Notes: generated by a model from the letters alone, not told the origin. A DNA stretch of 31,154 nucleotides from Candidatus Hydrothermarchaeales archaeon (GCA_046759365.1 JBHICB010000001.1:1-31154), one strand, 5' to 3'; shown: positions 8,563 through 25,901, numbered from the stretch's first letter. Numbers and translations: made by a program.

Positions 8563-9576
8563 TCATTTAATGTTGGCAAGTATCTTGGAATAGTAAGATT
8601 CCTCACAATTAGTGGCGTTTCTTCCAAGGTCATCAAGTGTACAGAGGATTTCTCCGCCCTTTTTAATCTTTAAAAATGTGATCTTTGAAGGATACTCGTT
8701 ATATAAGAATCTGCTCCTTTGTGTCTCAAATATCTGGCAGACGCGGGCATAAGACTTAATCCTCCAATCAATAGTCACTCCATTATCAGTTTCTCCGCAA
8801 AGCCTCCACAGGGGGTTTTCAACTCCGCCCTTCACGGCTATCGTTACATTTTTGTTGAATTTGTAAACTTCATCGTCAAATTTGAAGTTAAGACTCTTAA
8901 AGAGGGGTACCAAGGCCCGGGGCTCATAAAAATCGAGTTGTGAACCATCTTCAAAAAAAGTCCTGCCCCATCGCCATGGAATAAATGGCATGTTTATAGC
9001 TACCTTCTGGATAAAAGCTATGCCTTTGGATTCCGTGCCCTTAACCTTCCCTTTAAATGTAAAGTATGCATTATGCCTTTGAAATGGATTCATAAGATTT
9101 CCAAACTTAAGAAAATCTTCATTACGTTTTTCAGTTAAACTGACCTCGGTATCAAATTCTTTCAGTTTGAAGATATAACCCCCGGCTTTTCTTTTAAATA
9201 ACAGGGTGTCTGATACAAATCCATCGTTGTAACTCTCCAGAACATCGTTCCTGGTCTCGTGGAGTGTTTTCTCGTTTTGGTACCAATATGAGAGTCCAAC
9301 CTTGTAGTTAGGAGGATCAAAGGCAAATTCTATGGGAATCTTGTTTAACTGGTAATTCGAGATATTTTTCTGCCCTATGCCGATCATCAACTGAGTACCT
9401 GACTCAAAATCCAGAAATAGCATGTATCTGTAGATGGTCGTCCAATAACGGAGTTTGTCATCGAAATCAAAAAAGTCGTCTTCGAATGATTTTCCTGTAG
9501 TTGCATCTGCAAATCGTCTTTCAAAATCGAAGGCTGGAGGTTCGATTGGCAGCAAGGTTTTGATCCTCTCTATCAT
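8563..9576 (-). CDS. Hypothetical aromatic-rich beta protein, possibly AttH/CrtC/tocopherol-cyclase-like fold
   Basis: 337-aa ORF with its own TATA. The segment PWRWGRTFFEDGSQLDFY recalls lipocalin-like hydratase/cyclase folds (weak resemblance). Confidence 0.6.
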   Translation of the reverse strand: MIERIKTLLPIEPPAFDFERRFADATTGKSFEDDFFDFDDKLRYWTTIYRYMLFLDFESGTQLMIGIGQKNISNYQLNKIPIEFAFDPPNYKVGLSYWYQNEKTLHETRNDVLESYNDGFVSDTLLFKRKAGGYIFKLKEFDTEVSLTEKRNEDFLKFGNLMNPFQRHNAYFTFKGKVKGTESKGIAFIQKVAINMPFIPWRWGRTFFEDGSQLDFYEPRALVPLFKSLNFKFDDEVYKFNKNVTIAVKGGVENPLWRLCGETDNGVTIDWRIKSYARVCQIFETQRSRFLYNEYPSKITFLKIKKGGEILCTLDDLGRNATNCEESYYSKILANIK

Positions 9577-9599
9577 GTCAAACGAAGATAGTTTATACC

Positions 9600-9607
9600 T
9601 TTATAAA
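9600..9607 (-). promoter_or_regulatory. TATA box of the 337-aa gene
   Basis: TTTATAAA 24 nt upstream of ATG 9576. Confidence 0.55.
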
Positions 9608-9620
9608 TCTTTTTAGTATA

Positions 9621-11846
9621 TCAGAGCATTCCCCCCACCTTTGTGGCCGCAAGGGGGGCTGTCTTTTCCATTTCTCTTAATATCGAGCCTTCATATTTTT
9701 TTAAGTCCGCCAATCCCTGGTCTGCTATAGCATATACCTCGTCTTTAGGCTGGTTTGTATCTGAATTGTACCAATCCGTTGTCAATGTTATTACATAAGC
9801 AAATCTTTTTGTTCTCCATGAACGGGGATCAAGTGGATCCTCAGGGCATATAAGTCCATACTTTATACAAATAAGAAGCATTGAATCGTAATATTGGAAA
9901 GTCTCGTCGTCGTAGAAGAACGCTTCTTTGTTGACAGTCTCTGTTGTAAAGGCAGTTATTTTCGTTGGCTTCTCCACGCCAATTATATATTCGTTGACGA
10001 CCTGTTCGCCATATACCCCTAAAGAGTCATCAAACCGAAACTTACCTTCAGGAAGGGAAAAGATGATAGCTCCGCCGAATTTATCGCCTAGAAGCTTATG
10101 TGTTGGAAATTGTTTGGCGAAAGTTGCCGAGCCGTCGTGCCATACCTTTCTTCCTTTGAATGAGACCGTCTGTACTTCATAATAAGGCTTCCACCGTTCT
10201 GCGTTTAAGTGATCCAGGTCTCCTCCTTTTAACACCGCAGAGTCGTATTTTCCTATTAACACCCATGACTTTATGATCTCCTCTGGATTTTTAAACCATA
10301 CTGGGTCTTTTACAATACCCAGGCTCTGGAGGTTGTTGAATTCGTTTGCATCGATGAAATAGGGTTTGTCAGCAAAGATCCCAAACATCACCTCTGCCTC
10401 TGCATCATACCCTTTTGTAGCATCGGCTACAAAATAGTCCCAGCCTTCAGTGGCCACCAAGAGGAATCCATTCTCCTTATCTTCTATCAGGAGTTGATTT
10501 CTGCCTATCCCGTCCGGATCATCCTTCGCAGTTGAGGAGAACGCACCGGCATTTTCGCCGCTATAATCGGTATATCCGATATCAGAGCCTGTTAGGATGT
10601 CTGCACGATTCTCGACCTTGTCATTGTATACAAGTAAGTCCATCTCATTTATCTTATCAAATAACAGGTAGTAGCTGTGATCTAGATTGACCTTGATTTT
10701 GTAAAATGGATTCTCCATCTCCAGCCAGCCCTTTTGTGGGGCCTCTTCATTTATCAAAGGCTCCCATACCTTGATGTACGCCTTCACCTCTTTTCCGTTT
10801 ACATCAACTGTCTTGTCCATGAGCAGATCGTATATCAGTCCACGAGTAAGTATCTTTAGAACTATGGATCGGCTGGTGCTCTTCCCTTTGCTGTCTGTAC
10901 CTTCTAAAGTTATGGTATGATCTCCCACAGATAGGACATCGGTGCTAAAGGAGTTACCCGTCCCCAAATCACCATCTATACTCGACTGCCAATGCATAGA
11001 GGCATCGGGCAGAACCTCGTCCTCCTTATCCTCGCTCGTACCGACAAAGGTTATCGCCTGGCCGTATGATACTTCAAGGTTGTTAGGGGGTTCTTGAATC
11101 TCCACTTTTGGAGGATCATTTATCAGCCTACCTACAACAACTTCTTCAATAACGCCACCAAATGCAGCGAAAGCAATGAACGTCATGGCAGATATCACAA
11201 TAGCTACAAGTCTCCCCCTGCCACCAACCTTTTCGGCGAGGATATCGTCAAACCTGAATCTGCCCGTATATCCCTTCTTCTCTATCGCCTTTTGGATGAA
11301 GGCCATGTCATCCTTGCTTAGACGGTACTGGGTTTCCAGTTGCCCTACAACCGCCAATTTGAGCTCATCCAGGCTCTTGAATTCTTTCTCGTTCAATAGC
11401 TTATCGATGACACCTTTGACAACAAAGTCATCGACCTGCCTGCCTTCTGGTGTTATTTTGAATAGTCTCTCTTTCGTGCCAGAGACAGCTTTGGCTATCC
11501 TGGATCTTGCGGGCTCATGAAAAATAATTCCTTTTTCTGCCTTCTCCTCAGGTGGAGGGAGTTCTTCTTTTACTGGAGGAGCTGCTTCTAACGCCTCTTT
11601 TTCAATCTTTTCTACTTCAGGTATCTTCTCAGGTTCGAAAGTGGGCGCCTTTTTGGGCACTGGGGGTCTTTCGACAGCTTCCTTTACTGCAGCATATTCT
11701 CTTAAGTCTGAACCGCAGTGCATGCAGAACTTCGAGTCAAACTCTATGATATCGCCGCAATTGGAGCAGTAACCTATCTTAACTCCACAATGCCTGCAGA
11801 ATTTGGAAATATCTGATATCTGTTCCCTGCATCGAGGGCAGAACAT
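9621..11846 (-). CDS. Double zinc-ribbon single-pass membrane protein with a PKD/Ig-like domain and a large unknown C-terminal domain
   Basis: CPRC/CRHC/CSNC/CMHC at the N-terminus, a P/E/K-rich linker, and a hydrophobic helix LVAIVISAMTFIAFAAFGG (~11150-11210). Ig-like segment NDPPKVEI...WQSSIDGDLGTG...GDHTITLEGTDSKG. Confidence 0.8.
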   Translation of the reverse strand: MFCPRCREQISDISKFCRHCGVKIGYCSNCGDIIEFDSKFCMHCGSDLREYAAVKEAVERPPVPKKAPTFEPEKIPEVEKIEKEALEAAPPVKEELPPPEEKAEKGIIFHEPARSRIAKAVSGTKERLFKITPEGRQVDDFVVKGVIDKLLNEKEFKSLDELKLAVVGQLETQYRLSKDDMAFIQKAIEKKGYTGRFRFDDILAEKVGGRGRLVAIVISAMTFIAFAAFGGVIEEVVVGRLINDPPKVEIQEPPNNLEVSYGQAITFVGTSEDKEDEVLPDASMHWQSSIDGDLGTGNSFSTDVLSVGDHTITLEGTDSKGKSTSRSIVLKILTRGLIYDLLMDKTVDVNGKEVKAYIKVWEPLINEEAPQKGWLEMENPFYKIKVNLDHSYYLLFDKINEMDLLVYNDKVENRADILTGSDIGYTDYSGENAGAFSSTAKDDPDGIGRNQLLIEDKENGFLLVATEGWDYFVADATKGYDAEAEVMFGIFADKPYFIDANEFNNLQSLGIVKDPVWFKNPEEIIKSWVLIGKYDSAVLKGGDLDHLNAERWKPYYEVQTVSFKGRKVWHDGSATFAKQFPTHKLLGDKFGGAIIFSLPEGKFRFDDSLGVYGEQVVNEYIIGVEKPTKITAFTTETVNKEAFFYDDETFQYYDSMLLICIKYGLICPEDPLDPRSWRTKRFAYVITLTTDWYNSDTNQPKDEVYAIADQGLADLKKYEGSILREMEKTAPLAATKVGGML

Positions 11847-12127
11847 GAAGGCACCTCTTATCCTTTGTGATAGAGAATATTTGTCGTTGAGTTATTTAAA
11901 TATTTTTAAAAATAACAAGAAAAGGCTAATGTCCCTCCTATCTGTGACATCTTCAACAAGCAAGCTTTCGTTGATTACGTGTATGCCCTGAGAAAAGACA
12001 CTTTATCAAATTTACGTCAAAGCGGTATCATCAACTCATCCTTAATTAGATCGCTTCAAATCAAAAAAGTAAAAGCCAAAAAACTTCAGATACTTTTAAA
12101 AAGGATTACCCATAATTTGAAACAGCG

Positions 12128-12168
12128 TTTATATATAAAGCCCTTAAACCGCAGACGGAGGTTGGTGA
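12128..12168 (+). promoter_or_regulatory. tbp TATA box and RBS
   Basis: TTTATATA at 12128-12135; GGAGGT at 12157-12162 and GGTGA at 12164-12168 before ATG 12169. Confidence 0.65.
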
Positions 12169-12795
12169 ATGGCAGATCCAAAGATTAACGATCCGAATAT
12201 TAAGATTGAGAATGTTGTTGCTTCTACTGCTTTAACTAAAAAGAAAATGGACGAAAATGGCAATGTGTTAAAGGATGAAAACGGTGACCCCATCTATACA
12301 CAGGCCGAGGTCGATTTAGAAAGTGTCGCTGTCGCTTTAAGCAACGTTGAATACGAGCCCGAACAGTTCCCGGGCCTGGTATTTCACCTTGATAAACCCA
12401 AGACAGCTGCTCTAATATTCGGCTCAGGAAAGATCGTCTGCACAGGGGCAAAGAGTATCGATGAGGTCAAAGAGGCCATCAACATCACTGTTGACAAAAT
12501 CAGAAACGCTGGGACCGATATACCTGAGGATCCGGTTGTTGTGGTCCAGAACATAGTTGCAAGCGCAAACCTGCATGCAGAATTAAACCTGGACGCAATA
12601 GCAATAGGGCTTGATGGCACAGAATATGAACCGGAGCAGTTTCCCGGTCTAGTCTACAGGATGACAGACCCCAAGGTAGTTTTACTTTTGTTCGGCTCAG
12701 GAAAGATCGTCTGCACAGGGGCAAAAAAGCCATCGGACGTTGGAAGGGCAGTTGAAAACGTTTCCAAAAAGTTAGGTGAGTTGGGATTGCTTTGA
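12169..12795 (+). CDS. tbp: TATA-binding protein with a 22-aa insertion in repeat 1
   Basis: Two repeats of N(V/I)VAS...YEPEQFPGLV...FGSGKIVCTGAK. Confidence 0.98.
   Translation: MADPKINDPNIKIENVVASTALTKKKMDENGNVLKDENGDPIYTQAEVDLESVAVALSNVEYEPEQFPGLVFHLDKPKTAALIFGSGKIVCTGAKSIDEVKEAINITVDKIRNAGTDIPEDPVVVVQNIVASANLHAELNLDAIAIGLDGTEYEPEQFPGLVYRMTDPKVVLLLFGSGKIVCTGAKKPSDVGRAVENVSKKLGELGLL
12418..12725 (+). repeat. 35-bp exact direct repeat between the TBP halves (12418-12452 and 12691-12725)
   Basis: TTCGGCTCAGGAAAGATCGTCTGCACAGGGGCAAA occurs twice, 273 nt apart. Confidence 0.95.
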
Positions 12796-13505
12796 ACACA
12801 GCACTGTTCTACGAAACATTAGGCAAGATCTCATTTGCATTAATAATAGCGGTAGCATTATTGTTTTTGCTATCAACAGTTTTGGGGATTATATTGATAA
12901 AAAAGCACAAGATTATCCTACCAAGAGTCCTGCTCTTTACCATAGATACCTTTTACCTTCAGGTTAAAAGGCTCGCCAATATGTTTGGTGTGGGAGAGAA
13001 GGTAGTGGACTATATAGGCATTCAGATTAGAAACAACATATACGCCAATAGATTTGCCGACATCGACGTTAAGGACCGCATCCTCGTGGTTCCGCAGTGC
13101 TTAAGGCATTTGAAATGTCCTGCACGCCTTGATCCCAACTTGGGAGTTACATGCAAAGAGTGCGGTATGTGCGTTATTAATGACCTAAAACAAGAATCTG
13201 AGAGGCTTGGCTATAGATTCTATGTGGTCCCTGGCGGCACCTTTGTAGAACGCATAGTTAAGGCGGTAAAACCCAAGGCGGCCTTTGGTGTTGCCTGCCA
13301 CAGGGATTTAAACATGGCTATGCACGGCCTCTCTACTTGGAAATGCATTGTTCAGGGCCCGCCTTTAATAAAGGACGGATGCGTCCAGACCGAGGTCGAT
13401 CTAGAAGAACTCTTCAAGAGGATGAGGCTTGGCATTGAAGAGATTCTGCCTGAAGTGGACATCCAATGTCCAGGTGATAAGGACACCTTGAAAACCTCTT
13501 CGTAA
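12792..13505 (+). CDS. DUF116-family protein (N-terminal TM helix, Cys-rich)
   Basis: PQCLR...CPA...CKECGMC...VPGGT...GVACHRDL. TTG start overlaps the tbp stop. Confidence 0.85.
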   Translation: MNTALFYETLGKISFALIIAVALLFLLSTVLGIILIKKHKIILPRVLLFTIDTFYLQVKRLANMFGVGEKVVDYIGIQIRNNIYANRFADIDVKDRILVVPQCLRHLKCPARLDPNLGVTCKECGMCVINDLKQESERLGYRFYVVPGGTFVERIVKAVKPKAAFGVACHRDLNMAMHGLSTWKCIVQGPPLIKDGCVQTEVDLEELFKRMRLGIEEILPEVDIQCPGDKDTLKTSS

Positions 13506-20845: not shown

Positions 20846-21403
20846 ATGTTTAAAGCTAGAAATATTGCCTTTGGAATTTTAATCGTCTTCTTTTTTACAC
20901 TTGTTTTGGTATTTTTATCCAGTAGGCCGATACCAACCAAGAAACCAATGATTTCAGATTCAACTCCTGAAGGTTACATTAAAGCCGAGGTAAAAGACCT
21001 GCAGATCTCGGCCAGTGGCGGTGTAATCTCTATAGGTGGTGATGAATCTGAAAAGGTTCTGCAAATTCATATAGGAATGGATCAGGCTCATACTTTAGTT
21101 AGGGTTATGAACAATTTATCCTCTAAGCGGCCAATGACCCATGATCTGCTTGATGAGATTCTTAAAAAATCCGGAACTGATATCGTTTATATTTCTGTGG
21201 ATAAGTTCGAAGCTGGAACTTTTTTTGCCACTATCGTTGTAAGAGACGGTGAGGTAAAGAAGTTAGATGCTCGCCCCTCTGATAGTATTATAATCGCTTT
21301 AATGAGGGGAGCCCCAATTTATGTGAAAAAAGATTTGTTGGAAGTAAGTGGCGTGGCCCCTGGGCAAAAAGAAGTTCAAAGAGAGGTGGCACGCTCGGTG
21401 TAA
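20846..21403 (+). CDS. Bifunctional nuclease (DUF151/BFN) family protein with an N-terminal TM or signal helix
   Basis: RPMTHDLL, GTFFATI, LDARPSDSIIIAL, PIYV; N-terminal IAFGILIVFFFTLVLVFL. Confidence 0.85.
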   Translation: MFKARNIAFGILIVFFFTLVLVFLSSRPIPTKKPMISDSTPEGYIKAEVKDLQISASGGVISIGGDESEKVLQIHIGMDQAHTLVRVMNNLSSKRPMTHDLLDEILKKSGTDIVYISVDKFEAGTFFATIVVRDGEVKKLDARPSDSIIIALMRGAPIYVKKDLLEVSGVAPGQKEVQREVARSV

Positions 21404-21541
21404 TATGTTTACGGCATAAGACCAATCTTTCTATCCCTATGCGTTGGAGTCACCAGAGGAATTTCTCTCTTTGTTTGAGGAATATGGAAAAGTGAAAAAA
21501 GGAAGAGATGGCATTAGATTTTTGGGAATCTGCATAAATCT

Positions 21542-22471
21542 TTAGAACACTATCTCTCCATCTGCAGCATAGATTATGCCTGCAGGGTCATAGTCTGTGA
21601 GTCTTGCCGTAATCATAATGGCGTCATTTTTATTGATATTTACGAGTTTTCCTCTTTGATCCCAATTTATCCTCGCAACGATCTCACAACCAGTGGAGTG
21701 TTCTAGCTGGAGTATATATCCCTCAGAATCCTTATTTGCGGCTACCAAAATTGCCCCTTCCCATGTAATGTATTTGTCTTTGTATGTGGAACTGAAAATG
21801 TCCTGTTTTTGAAGATCGGTATAGTTGCTGAACAATCCAAGGATCTGACACGCTTCCTCAAGACTGTTGTTTATAAAAACCTTTTCTAAAACTTGTTCTG
21901 TTGTAATGTTTTCAAGCATGGTTGTTATATTCGATTCTGTTGCATTAATTTCTTGTCTTCTGAAGTTGGATATAATGCCTGGCAGAAACACCACAGAAAG
22001 GACAGTTACAAGGAGCATGAACCCTCCAAAATCTATCATGTTTCTTGCCATTTTGTAGTCATATTTTCGAATCGCAAAATATGCAATTACTCCACCAAAA
22101 ATGTTGAAAAATAGTGGTGTAAGGTACCACCATTTTGAAGGTTTTTGTCTGCGGGCAATTCGAGGAGGTGTCTTATATGTCTCCGGCTCCTTATTAGGCC
22201 CCTTATATCTAGAAATTGTTCTCTGAGCTTTAATCTCAGATATTTTTCTTGCTATCTCCCTTTTCTTCTTTTTGAACTCTTCTTCACCAATTTCGTCCCT
22301 CTCATGGGCCTTTATTATCTCACTTAACTGCTTTTTCAATTCTTTCTGTTTCTCTCTTATGGTCTTTTTTTTGGATTTGCCGACACTTGGTTTTGTCAGC
22401 AAATTCCCACACCATACGCAGATTACGTCTCCTTCCTTGTATGCAGTTCCGCATTTCTCGCAAGTAGGCAT
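21542..22471 (-). CDS. Zinc-ribbon / SHOCT-like / TM / OB-fold-like membrane protein
   Basis: CEKC..CVWC; EIGEEEFKKKKREI; hydrophobic WWYLTPLFFNIFGGVIAYF and GFMLLVTVLSVVFLPGII. Five N-x-S/T sequons follow the last TM, then YKDKYITWEG...ITARL. Confidence 0.75.
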   Translation of the reverse strand: MPTCEKCGTAYKEGDVICVWCGNLLTKPSVGKSKKKTIREKQKELKKQLSEIIKAHERDEIGEEEFKKKKREIARKISEIKAQRTISRYKGPNKEPETYKTPPRIARRQKPSKWWYLTPLFFNIFGGVIAYFAIRKYDYKMARNMIDFGGFMLLVTVLSVVFLPGIISNFRRQEINATESNITTMLENITTEQVLEKVFINNSLEEACQILGLFSNYTDLQKQDIFSSTYKDKYITWEGAILVAANKDSEGYILQLEHSTGCEIVARINWDQRGKLVNINKNDAIMITARLTDYDPAGIIYAADGEIVF

Positions 22472-22643
22472 CGTCCCACTTTAGTCCTTTTAAATATAAA
22501 TAAAGTTGTGTCTATCTTCTTCTAATAGTGCTATAACTTTCAATTAGATCGTCTATTACATAATTTTGTTATATATAAACATCTATGAAAATGAGAATGT
22601 AGAAGAAAATGCCTTTGTATTTATTCCTATACGAATATGAGTT

Positions 22644-22667
22644 AGTAGCGGGGGGTCGATTTGAACG
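22644..22667 (-). repeat. att copy: duplicated 3' end of tRNA-iMet
   Basis: AGTAGCGGGGGGTCGATTTGAACG is identical to 24537-24560. Confidence 0.93.
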
Positions 22668-22727
22668 GCTTAAAGAGTATGGGGGGACGAATAGTGAACT
22701 TTGAAAATGTTTGCTATTTTTCTAAAT

Positions 22728-22782
22728 GTGAGCTATTTACTCACAAATAAGTTTTTATACTAAAAGTGAGCTATTTACTCAC
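22728..22782 (+). promoter_or_regulatory. Twin 17-bp pseudo-palindromic operators flanking a TATA box
   Basis: GTGAGCTATTTACTCAC at 22728-22744 and 22766-22782, with TTTTTATA at 22752-22759 between them and ATG at 22783. Confidence 0.85.
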
Positions 22783-23598
22783 ATGACACAGTGGATCCCT
22801 GAATGGCTTGCAAGAAGATACTCTGAGATGTACGTTCTGAAGAAAGAATTCGATCTACGCGAAGCAGTAGATGCATGGGGCGTAAAAGAAAGCACAACGA
22901 GGAAAATTTTAAGCGAGCTAGCTAAAAAAGGATGGATAAGAGAGATTGAAAGGGGCAAAGGTAAGAGATATATTTTAACCAGTCCTGAGGAGGCGGTCTT
23001 TAAATTTGCAACCATCTCCAAATCAAATGTACTTGATATAGCAACCAGAATCTTCCAGGAGCATAAAAATGTGCTCTTTTTCGGATCTTTGGTTACTTTG
23101 AAGTATGGACACGGCAGGCTGGAAGATTATCTTGTGGTGTTAACAAAGCCTTTTGAGCAACACCTGCTTGAGGGAAAAAAGTGGAAGGTACCGGTAGAAG
23201 TGTTGGGTCTTAGCGACACAAAGATGTTTAAAAATGCCAATCTTCTGTTGTACAAAGGTACGCGATTGAAAATAGCGTCCCTTGAGGATTCCATTGTCCT
23301 TTTTGCTTACTGCATATTCCAGAGAGGGTTGGCCCTTAGGATATCTGACTATGTAAGCTTGCTCATGGAGCCTGAGATAATAGACTGGGAATACGTTATC
23401 GAAAGGGCTAGGAAGTTCAAGGTTGAAAAGGCCCTATATCTAACTCTCAGCAGTAGCTTGGAAATAAACATTAAAAGGGAGATACTAGACAAGTTTGAAG
23501 AGATGGCCCATGGTGAACCTGAGCCTCATTTTTGGGAATCGGGGATTTCGGAAAAAGAGATAATAAACGCTTATAGGAAGGTTAGAGAATTATGGTGA
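22783..23598 (+). CDS. wHTH plus degenerate nucleotidyltransferase-like domain protein (type IV TA / AbiEi-like antitoxin candidate)
   Basis: wHTH STTRKILSELAKKGWIREIERGKGKRY. C-terminal FFGSLVTLKYGHGRLED, KIASLEDSIV and IDWEYVIERA. Confidence 0.65.
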   Translation: MTQWIPEWLARRYSEMYVLKKEFDLREAVDAWGVKESTTRKILSELAKKGWIREIERGKGKRYILTSPEEAVFKFATISKSNVLDIATRIFQEHKNVLFFGSLVTLKYGHGRLEDYLVVLTKPFEQHLLEGKKWKVPVEVLGLSDTKMFKNANLLLYKGTRLKIASLEDSIVLFAYCIFQRGLALRISDYVSLLMEPEIIDWEYVIERARKFKVEKALYLTLSSSLEINIKREILDKFEEMAHGEPEPHFWESGISEKEIINAYRKVRELW

Positions 23599-23602
23599 AG
23601 AC

Positions 23603-23662
23603 ATGATGAAAGAAAAAATTCAAAAGGCCCTAACCAGGTTAAACGATGTTCTCAAGGAGTAA
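23603..23662 (+). pseudogene. 19-codon stub of a probable partner gene
   Basis: A GGTGA RBS overlaps the upstream stop, then MMKEKIQKALTRLNDVLKE* (amphipathic helix). Multiple stops follow. Confidence 0.45.
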
Positions 23663-23702
23663 AATGAGTAGGTATGAAAACTCATATTTTCTGTTATAAT
23701 AA

Positions 23703-24089
23703 CTAATCTTTGGCTAGATCCTCTATGGCCCGTCTAATCCTTTCCAGAAGTCTATCTGCATCATGGATTATATCCTCTGCTTCTTCTTCTGTGAATTCAT
23801 ACCCTATCCCGTAGTCCGCTCGCTCCCTGCTTTCCCTTGCTGTGCTTATGATCTTGACGTAGTAATCCTCAACCACACCTTTCTTTACAAACTCCAGTCC
23901 AAACTGGGCAATTACTCCCTTGTGAGTTTTTGGAAAGATGTTTTTGGTGCTGAGCAGGGCTCTTGCAGAATAGTGCATGCTATAGTAGGCCCTGCTTATG
24001 GCGTCGCCATACTCTCCTTTTTCATAAAGGATCATTGCGGACCTCAATTTAGATTCTGCTTCCTCTAGAAGAAGATGGGCTTCATCCAA
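23703..24089 (-). CDS. HEPN domain protein (UPF0332/COG1895-like)
   Basis: AISRAYYSM, PKTHKG, RERADY. Start probably TTG 24089, overlapping the MNT stop. Confidence 0.92.
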   Translation of the reverse strand: MDEAHLLLEEAESKLRSAMILYEKGEYGDAISRAYYSMHYSARALLSTKNIFPKTHKGVIAQFGLEFVKKGVVEDYYVKIISTARESRERADYGIGYEFTEEEAEDIIHDADRLLERIRRAIEDLAKD

Positions 24090-24405
24090 TAGCCACACCC
24101 TCTCTGGTAATGTTCTGATAAAATCCTGTGTTTATTTTCTTCATGAATTCGTACTCTTCTGTTGATATCGCTTTCGGCGAGATATAAACCCCCTTATCTA
24201 GCAATATATCAACGGCTATCCCAGAGAGGTCCTTCTGCACTTTGAATCGGTCTTCCCTGGTAATAACAAGCAGATCTATGTCGCTTTCCTCATTATAATC
24301 CTCCCGGGCATGGCTACCAAATAAGATTATCTCTTCTATTTTGTCACCGTATTTTTCCTTGACATTCTTTACAAATTCTTCTGTTACTTTTTTTTGCAGA
24401 TCCAT
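24082..24405 (-). CDS. Minimal nucleotidyltransferase (MNT)
   Basis: LFGSHAREDYNEESDIDLLV (GS-x10-DxD). Start probably ATG 24405. Confidence 0.92.
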   Translation of the reverse strand: MDLQKKVTEEFVKNVKEKYGDKIEEIILFGSHAREDYNEESDIDLLVITREDRFKVQKDLSGIAVDILLDKGVYISPKAISTEEYEFMKKINTGFYQNITREGVAIG

Positions 24406-24538
24406 GAGGAATAATATGTGCTTATAGTATTTTATCCTTTCTTGCCATATCATAGGCTAATTTTCTGAATTTTGGTCCTGATAAAAAGCAGTAAAAGCCG
24501 AACAAGAATGTTTTATTTTCATTGTTCGACCTCTGAAG

Positions 24539-24614
24539 TAGCGGGGGGTCGATTTGAACGACCGATCTCCGGGTTATGAGCCCGGCGGGATTGACCTGGC
24601 TACCCCACCCCGCT
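24539..24614 (-). tRNA. tRNA-Met initiator (CAT)
   Basis: AGCGGGG...CCCCGCT-A with an A1-U72 pair and three G-C pairs next to loop CTCATAA. CCA is not encoded. Confidence 0.96.
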
Positions 24615-25789: not shown

Positions 25790-25901
25790 GCGGCTATAGT
25801 CTAGCGGTAGGACTCAAGCTTCCCAAGCTTTAGGACAATAGGAATAAATCTTAAAGCGGAAAAAGCTTGCTGCCCGGGTTCGAATCCCGGTAGCCGCACC
25901 A
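25790..25901 (+). tRNA. tRNA-Gly (CCC) with a 38-nt intron at position 37/38
   Basis: GCGGCTA...CAAGC-TTCCCA|intron|A-GCTTG...TAGCCGC-A-CCA. Confidence 0.95.
25826..25863 (+). other. tRNA intron with a canonical bulge-helix-bulge
   Basis: Central helix TTCC(25820-23):GGAA(25858-61), 3-nt bulges CA|A and AA|A, and a 9-bp intron stem GCTTTAGGA/TCTTAAAGC. Confidence 0.92.

Follow-up and report, generated by a model that had tools for sequence, protein, structure and literature searches.

Introduction

In streptococci and other Firmicutes, cis-mobilisable elements (CIMEs) have lost the genes for integration and transfer and have kept their attachment (att) sites, attL and attR (PMC5704250). Here we describe an islet of this kind, with attL and attR retained and recombination and transfer genes absent, at the initiator tRNA-Met (tRNA-iMet) gene of a Candidatus Hydrothermarchaeales archaeon (GCA_046759365.1); it occupies positions 22644-24560 of a stretch of 31,154 nucleotides (JBHICB010000001.1:1-31154), analysed at its full length and called the window below. 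CIMEs often lie at tRNA 3' ends, as the islet does, often stand in tandem with other elements at the same att site and are moved only by a recombinase encoded elsewhere. They differ in being bacterial and in riding conjugative elements, whereas the islet is archaeal and belongs with units that are far smaller (0.8-2 kb) and carry toxin-antitoxin (TA) genes only. Unlike CIMEs, moreover, the type of cargo module found in the islet occurs with repeats derived from several unrelated targets.

Among archaea, integration and gene capture at tRNA genes are known for elements with SSV-type 'suicidal' integrases (PMC7253208), and cryptic integrated elements lie at tRNA genes of Thaumarchaeota, the smallest reported being 2.6 kb and still encoding an integrase (PMC6563490). 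Such elements share with the islet the tRNA 3' end, the att repeats and a decay that leaves captured genes behind; SSV-type elements, however, leave split integrase halves at their ends, whereas the islet has neither such a fragment nor the space to hold one. The pdif modules of Acinetobacter plasmids and the gene cassettes of integrons are also small, recombinase-less units of promoter plus gene, often TA pairs; recombination sites bound them, they occur as arrays, and the enzyme that moves them is encoded outside the unit. Their pdif or attC sites are part of the cassette system itself, with XerC/D or IntI as the enzyme that recognises them, whereas the repeats of the islet and its relatives copy the host target, namely tRNA ends, a gene start and a CRISPR spacer.

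Site-specific recombination at the 3' end of tRNA-iMet in this lineage is well supported by the comparisons below. Our preferred reading of the islet itself, to which we give a probability of roughly 50%, is that it is an integrase-less, att-flanked patchwork of TA genes, CIME-like in nature, which arose by site-specific recombination and depends on recombinases acting in trans.

Genomes and methods

The source genome (G000) is a metagenome-assembled genome (MAG) from a deep-sea vent, 1.5 Mb in 276 contigs and 88.6% complete, of which the window is the entire contig C1. It was compared with relatives from the same genus (G001), the same family (G002 and G003) and the same order (G026), within an order-wide comparison that took in 35 genomes, six of them belonging to the family of G000. 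Transfer RNAs were called by ARAGORN and domains by Pfam, with PF00589 as the integrase marker. Only one public run contains the window DNA; it is a hydrothermal-vent metagenome, probably the source sample, available as contigs and Logan unitigs.

An att-like repeat at the initiator tRNA gene

A repeat search returned an exact direct repeat of 24 nt at 22644-22667 and 24537-24560, with 1893 bp from start to start and 1869 bp between the copies, where by our own arithmetic about 2e-6 exact 24-mer pairs would be expected by chance in 31 kb. ARAGORN places a tRNA-Met(CAT) at 24538-24614 on the minus strand, so that the repeat begins in the T-arm, takes in the discriminator base and ends 2 nt beyond the tRNA. 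The right-hand copy (attR, 24537-24560) is the 3' end of the functional tRNA, and the left-hand copy (attL, 22644-22667), identical to it at 24/24 positions, is a displaced copy of the final 22 nt of tRNA-iMet and the 2 nt that follow them. An intact tRNA on one side and a displaced 3' fragment on the other is the geometry of attL and attR at a tRNA 3' end. An initial annotation, made from the sequence alone, had described both the duplication, with its extent and spacing, and its likeness to tyrosine-integrase insertion; the repeat search and the tRNA call bear out the former, and the direct repeat with its intact tRNA and displaced fragment agrees with the latter.

Archaeal initiator tRNAs are marked by an A1:U72 pair and by three G:C pairs closing the anticodon stem. 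Both marks are seen in the tRNA at 24538-24614 (A1:U72; GGG:CCC in the anticodon stem), and a second tRNA-Met(CAT), starting GGGCCC, is encoded on contig C228 of the same genome; on these grounds the tRNA next to the islet is identified as the initiator. The 24-mer has just these two copies in the 1.5-Mb assembly, even with up to 2 mismatches allowed. No terminal inverted repeats bounding the islet were found in the repeat search, and similarity to the tRNA ends abruptly at the repeat edges, with no residual likeness further 5'.

The initial annotation had allowed that the repeat might be an assembly artefact. Logan unitigs cross the two junctions separately (21000-22678 and 22745-24568), and a chimera at the repeat is therefore unlikely. 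Identity between G000 and G001 in the flanking genes is just ~76%, and the counterpart copy in G001 has 4 changes, yet attL has kept all 24 of its 24 positions; this suggests either a recent exchange or a constraint acting on the site.

Variable cargo at the same site in relatives

Extra partial copies of tRNA-iMet were found in 5 of the 26 genomes with iMet 3' sequence, among the 35 searched in the order (G000, G001, G002, G003 and G026), so the notion that the initiator tRNA is a less usual target does not hold for this order. Synteny between G001 and the window holds up to the left flank gene, after which G001 has a PadR-like gene, a degenerate iMet copy, AbiEi/AbiEii, a perfect 27-nt iMet copy and unrelated genes. 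The site in G001 is not empty and holds other cargo, and the complete tRNA-iMet of that genome lies on a different contig (C40, the att copy being on C99), beside a hydrogenase operon. In G002, GNAT and MazE-like genes adjoin a partial iMet copy, while in G003 a minimal nucleotidyltransferase (MNT) and HEPN gene pair is enclosed by two partial iMet copies. The comparison across strains for variable cargo that had been proposed for this site was thus positive, with AbiE in G001, GNAT/MazE in G002 and MNT-HEPN in G003. It shows that insertions have occurred at tRNA-iMet more than once within the family, in the form of very small units (0.8-2 kb) that carry nothing but TA genes.

Two further observations concern the tRNA-iMet genes of these relatives. 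On L024 (G001:C40, 5030-10130), the complete tRNA-iMet has downstream of it a 30-aa stretch that may be an integrase N-terminal remnant (a weak match, E=0.014), with a hydrogenase-type operon beyond, from which it follows that the neighbourhood of tRNA-iMet in G001 has been rearranged or bears a large insert. On L025 (G003:C4, 1422-2645), an open reading frame (ORF) of 407 aa, TnpB/IS605 OrfB-like by eye, lies ~1.2 kb downstream of the G003 tRNA-iMet.

A cassette within a CRISPR spacer

In G003, a 0.83-kb MNT-HEPN unit sits in the last spacer of a CRISPR array (L026, G003:C3, 7845-9312), with the degenerate terminal repeat on one side of it and the last of the regular repeats on the other. The regular repeats are 37 nt long and number eight (L026 8763-9312), and the two iMet fragments that bound the unit, with no genes between them other than the MNT and the HEPN gene, are 847 nt apart, start to start. 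When the two halves are joined they make a 40-nt spacer that copies the tRNA-iMet 3' end together with 8 nt of the downstream flank of G003 itself. One of the two copies has 4 additional tRNA-like nucleotides that are absent from the spacer, and the sole T/C difference lies on the side predicted for an attP x pseudo-attB exchange, that is, for a circle with an iMet-like attP entering the spacer. These junctions fit site-specific recombination of the 0.83-kb unit better than they fit target duplication, and a CRISPR spacer nearly copying the iMet att region seems to have served as the integration site. They are our strongest evidence that ~35 nt of iMet sequence suffice as a target and that a unit as small as 0.83 kb was, or became, the inserted DNA.

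Downstream of this array, L026 has 3.8 kb of ordinary-looking genes (9313-13105; a transporter and stress-protein-like ORFs) before the 37-nt CRISPR repeat recurs at 13106-13292. The same 8 nt, AATCCCCT, stand at both edges of the 3.8-kb stretch, which may mark a second array or another insertion into the array.

Related modules at other targets

A block of AbiEi/AbiEii of ~1.87 kb, with 67-84% DNA identity between occurrences and with bracketing repeats 25-130 nt outside it, was found at tRNA-iMet, tRNA-Ser, tRNA-Cys and a coding gene; beyond the iMet site of G001, the module is carried by contigs of other archaea (L033, L040, L041 and L042). On L033 (5766-9535), a 27-nt repeat stands three times after tRNA-Ser(TGA); it is made of 14 nt of tRNA and 13 nt beyond, and its copies bound in tandem an AbiE unit 75% identical to that of G001 and then a homologue of the winged helix-turn-helix (wHTH) gene of the window with an intact partner gene. 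On L040 (4924-6982), an AbiE unit lies between exact 24-nt repeats of the tRNA-Cys 3' end. The module on L041 (129-2261) is bracketed by 74-nt repeats, 84% identical with a central identical block, and that on L042 (143-2299) by exact 62-nt repeats; both pairs of repeats read as derived from the N-terminal coding part of a nuclease-like gene. The L041 copies, alike at 84% around an identical core, look as would be expected for attP versus attB. In many archaea, TA-rich islands and contigs of very short length frequently carry close homologues of AbiEii, and a metagenome scan with an AbiEii alignment added one locus only.

At the 3' arm of the AbiE modules, near the bounding repeat, a motif of ~20 nt (TTAsCAGTAAA...GCTGAT) recurs at L040 5003-5025 and 6940-6958, L033 7861-7883 and 9486-9508, and L043 1840-1920; as a general recombination signal it was rejected, being absent from the other islets of G000. 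At the tRNA-Cys of L040, the motif is present on either side of the tRNA-derived repeat, where a 17-nt stretch of the cassette's 3' arm is duplicated, with microhomologies of 3-5 nt between the arm motif and the tRNA sequence. On L043 and L044, from another organism, successive TA-type modules each start with the same promoter-like 23 nt, TTTTTCAAAAAGTTCATGATATA (L043 1895-1917 and 3033-3055; L044 633-655 and 2600-2622), in an array without tRNA pieces between the units.

The MNT-HEPN pair has a homologue on L064 (G002:C147, 921-2469) between 44-nt repeats, 84% identical, that are not tRNA-derived. In G023, G006 and G013 the homologous pairs had neither flanking repeats nor a tRNA nearby, and the pair is therefore not always found in such islets. 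The source genome itself has two more islets at tRNA genes, both without an integrase. On C14 (L060, 11016-12553), tRNA-Arg(CCG) is followed by PIN/RHH and MazE/ParE pairs and then by a second copy of its 3' end, and on C34 (L061, 2242-6136), tRNA-Glu(CTC) has two further 3' copies, which bound a gene for a 787-aa membrane protein and a PIN_2 pair.

Three other candidates were set aside. An apparent extra copy of tRNA-Ser on contig C78 of G000 is a real, intron-bearing tRNA, and the 2.3 kb that separate tRNA-Ala from tRNA-Val in G003 contain housekeeping-type genes and no repeat. An extra match to tRNA-Gly at C1:25881, found with the 3' end of tRNA-Gly(TCC) from contig C26, belongs to an intron-bearing tRNA-Gly at 25790-25901 of the window that ARAGORN had left uncalled; the syntenic tRNA of G001 is tRNA-Gly(CCC).

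Cargo of the islet and its mosaic make-up

Next to attL, the islet encodes a 271-aa protein (22783-23598, plus strand) with weak wHTH matches and a nucleotidyltransferase-like region (NTP_transf_5 in Pfam, E=2.6e-4). Immediately 5' of this gene and on the same strand lie twin units of 29 nt, 38 nt apart, each with a palindrome GTGAG...CTCAC (22717-22783), which are likely to be operators; equivalent twin units precede the homologues of the 271-aa gene on L033 and L034, the only two homologues among the 5.8 billion proteins searched. No recognisable tRNA piece was seen upstream of the L034 homologue. Both homologues are followed by an overlapping partner gene, whole in L033, where its product is a nucleotidyltransferase matching DUF6036, NTP_transf_5 and AbiEii. 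The window has kept a stump of this partner gene (23592-23606, plus strand), in which the start MVK is retained and a stop follows after 4 codons. Homology to L033 and L034 ceases at about 23606, which accordingly marks a deletion or replacement junction. The 271-aa protein represents the regulator or antitoxin-like half of an AbiE-like two-gene module, a pair left incomplete in the window, with the wHTH-type gene present and the nucleotidyltransferase partner cut to 4 codons; a pairwise comparison of the 271-aa protein with AbiEi of G001 gave no similarity.

The minus strand carries the MNT-HEPN pair. The HEPN-domain protein of 131 aa (23703-24098; PF05168, E=1.4e-22) is the toxin-type partner of an MNT (24082-24453; PF01909, NTP_transf_2, E=8.7e-13), and the two genes overlap by 17 nt at 24082-24098. 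The MNT reading frame is open from 24453, and comparison with the G003 homologue suggests 24405 as the likely start, giving a gene at 24082-24405. The MNT shows a GS...DxD-type motif, GSHAREDYNEESDIDLL, and matches the MntA model with E=7e-8, under the cut-off of that model. HEPN toxins are usually expected to have an Rx4-6H motif; at the corresponding place the window protein has RERADY and its G003 homologue REFADY, with no obvious histidine. In their domains and overlapping two-gene layout, the islet genes match the HEPN-MNT (type VII, HepT/MntA-like) and AbiE (type IV) TA systems. Unlike the canonical systems, the AbiE-like module of the window has no nucleotidyltransferase gene, and its predicted HEPN protein reads R-E-R-A-D-Y in place of Rx4-6H.

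Between the MNT gene and attR, alignment to G001 reveals a 3' remnant of an AbiE cassette (24450-24536, plus strand), in which the final codons of AbiEii lead into the downstream arm and its hairpin (24499-24528). The BLAST core of this alignment (window 24482-24562 against G001 L023 8904-8984) is 89% identical, and the alignment extends into the AbiEii stop region. The counterpart of the arm in G001 sits after AbiEii, immediately before the att copy, with the hairpin conserved, so that the last ~88 nt of the islet are the leftover of an AbiE module that G001 has kept whole. Conversely, G001 holds a 14-nt piece of the window-type operator directly after its outer att copy. We infer that an ancestor of the genus carried both modules between the iMet repeats and that the lineages lost different parts.

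Pfam gave no PF00589 match on the window contig, and tblastn found no homologue of the G026 integrase inside the islet. The non-coding gaps within the islet are 115, 104 and 131 nt only, so no integrase fragment can hide there. The statement that the cargo is of TA type only, without an integrase remnant, therefore stands.

Candidate recombinases

An integrase that acts at the same sequence is found in G026, where a 433-aa PF00589 protein is encoded 40 nt from tRNA-iMet and a 37-nt partial iMet copy lies beside Mu-type portal, Mu F-like and cement-protein genes. With an integrase at the tRNA and Mu-like head genes beside the partial copy, the G026 element is a provirus with its own integrase, and its repeat terminates at the same tRNA position as that of the G003 cassette. 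Tyrosine-integrase action at the iMet sequence, which the initial annotation had read from the repeat, thus gains indirect support from the G026 provirus and from the attP x pseudo-attB junctions of G003; the islet contributes no integrase of its own. The G026-type integrase family is present in 15 of the 35 genomes of the order.

Of the eight PF00589 matches in G000, seven lie on four short contigs (C172, C174, C207 and C133; L003-L009; 2-4 kb) and one on C20. The four contigs carry diverged copies of one operon, with 42-63% protein identity between homologous ORFs, that encodes a protein of ~130-160 aa, a tyrosine recombinase of ~400 aa and a second one of ~320 aa. Their G+C content agrees with that of the genome, and the four-copy operon looks like a multi-copy, recombinase-based mobile element. 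A scan of IMG/VR for the 22-nt att core gave no match.

Origin of the islet

The preferred reading would work as follows. DNA circles bearing the last 24-37 nt of tRNA-iMet would have recombined with the tRNA gene in a tyrosine-integrase-type exchange, which would have restored the tRNA, with the displaced 3' fragment ending up on the far side of the insert. Internal deletions have since reshaped the window copy: what is left is a wHTH regulator without its partner, the HEPN-MNT pair in full and a scrap of an AbiE module. Since the islet is without a recombinase, any further movement or exchange of cargo needs one in trans, for which the candidates would be a provirus integrase sharing the att site or the paralogous tyrosine-recombinase operons of G000. 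By analogy with known TA behaviour, the intact HEPN-MNT pair probably protects the islet from loss.

Several results weigh against this reading. A clean empty-site reference was not found, synteny on the islet side of the tRNA being lost outside the genus, and the window copy is internally decayed, with its partner stump and AbiE remnant, as would be expected of a relic. Cargo at the iMet sites is oriented relative to the tRNA in the opposite sense to that at the tRNA-Ser and tRNA-Cys sites, and the bracketing repeats vary from 23 to 74 nt in length; a single att-plus-cargo unit would not simply explain both. As to the helper, the G026-type integrase was found in 0/6 genomes of the family and not in G000, none of the PF00589 proteins of G000 resembles it or is linked to the islet att, and no third att copy, as an attP-bearing partner would have, was found in the 88.6%-complete assembly. 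Finally, no excision circle, empty site or population variant was seen: the contigs of the one run include no joint that skips the islet and none that closes on itself, a result at contig level that is uninformative on excision; loose contig ends at 24536 are the tRNA-iMet flanks of other organisms.

The internal decay leads to the first rival to be weighed, that of a dead relic, in which a larger integrase-bearing provirus or plasmid at tRNA-iMet was deleted down to its addictive TA genes and the repeats are immobile scars. Such an origin would also account for the partner gene stopped after 4 codons and the AbiEii 3' scrap, the degenerate outer att copy of G001, the weak 30-aa integrase-like remnant (E=0.014) by the G001 tRNA-iMet, and a genome without a cognate integrase or a third att copy. 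We regard it as a serious rival but as less probable than the preferred reading. Against it, decay at five different targets would each time have had to halt, independently, no more than 25-130 nt from the 1.87-kb AbiE module, and would also have had to leave a bare 0.83-kb MNT-HEPN unit with near-perfect repeats in a CRISPR spacer. An attL still identical at 24/24 positions despite ~24% flank divergence from G001 would have a probability of P~0.05, as a rough estimate, if the repeat predates the split. The initial annotation had offered a relic kept by addiction and a minimal satellite mobilised in trans as alternatives; the two perfect att copies and the TA-only cargo are upheld, and for this copy the data do not separate the two options. 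In favour of movement are the perfect repeats and the recurrence of such small units; internal decay and the lack of a helper count against it.

An origin without an integrase, whether by target duplication through staggered breaks and fill-in, by microhomology-mediated end joining of a linearised circle or by a transposition-like enzyme of unknown kind that prefers tRNA 3' ends, is improbable in our estimation. It would suit a module that occurs in both orientations with repeats of unrelated targets, the 17-nt cassette-arm duplication and short microhomologies around the tRNA-Cys repeat of L040, and a family in which the G026-type integrase is missing. It sits poorly with repeats of inconstant length (23, 24, 27, 37, 44 and 62-74 nt), with the lack of terminal inverted repeats at the islet, with L041 copies that are only 84% alike around an identical central block, as attP and attB would be, and with G003 junctions that include element-derived tRNA-like bases beyond the target; in G026, moreover, a bona fide integrase and provirus use the same sequence. 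Least credible of all, and by our reckoning close to negligible, is a trivial duplication, either a mis-assembly at a short repeat or a decayed old duplicate of the tRNA. A fragmented MAG in 276 contigs invites the suspicion, but the separate unitigs across both junctions, the abrupt end of similarity at the repeat edges without tRNA likeness further 5', and the recurrence of the same architecture in several independent assemblies all speak against it.

Implications

Little is understood of how TA and defence genes move from genome to genome, especially among archaea. The comparable cases gathered here, several of them minimal TA units that lie between copies of their target, and with the same unit at different targets, carry the interest mainly beyond the single islet, into the wider pattern. 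It is possible, and we propose it only tentatively, that Hydrothermarchaeales and perhaps other archaea have a pool of recombinase-less TA cassettes of 0.8-2 kb, inserted as units at tRNA 3' ends, in a coding gene and in a CRISPR spacer, forming tandem arrays and moved in trans, as an archaeal counterpart of the integron, pdif or CIME cassette systems, or else entering by an unknown route that duplicates 23-74 nt of the target.

Were the islets only relics, they would still show that addiction to TA genes keeps the last remains of integrated elements in place beside tRNA genes. If the preferred reading of movement in trans is true, they would offer a simple, testable system for cassette-like gene flow in archaea, and the G003 cassette would mean that a spacer directed against an integrating element can itself become an integration site.

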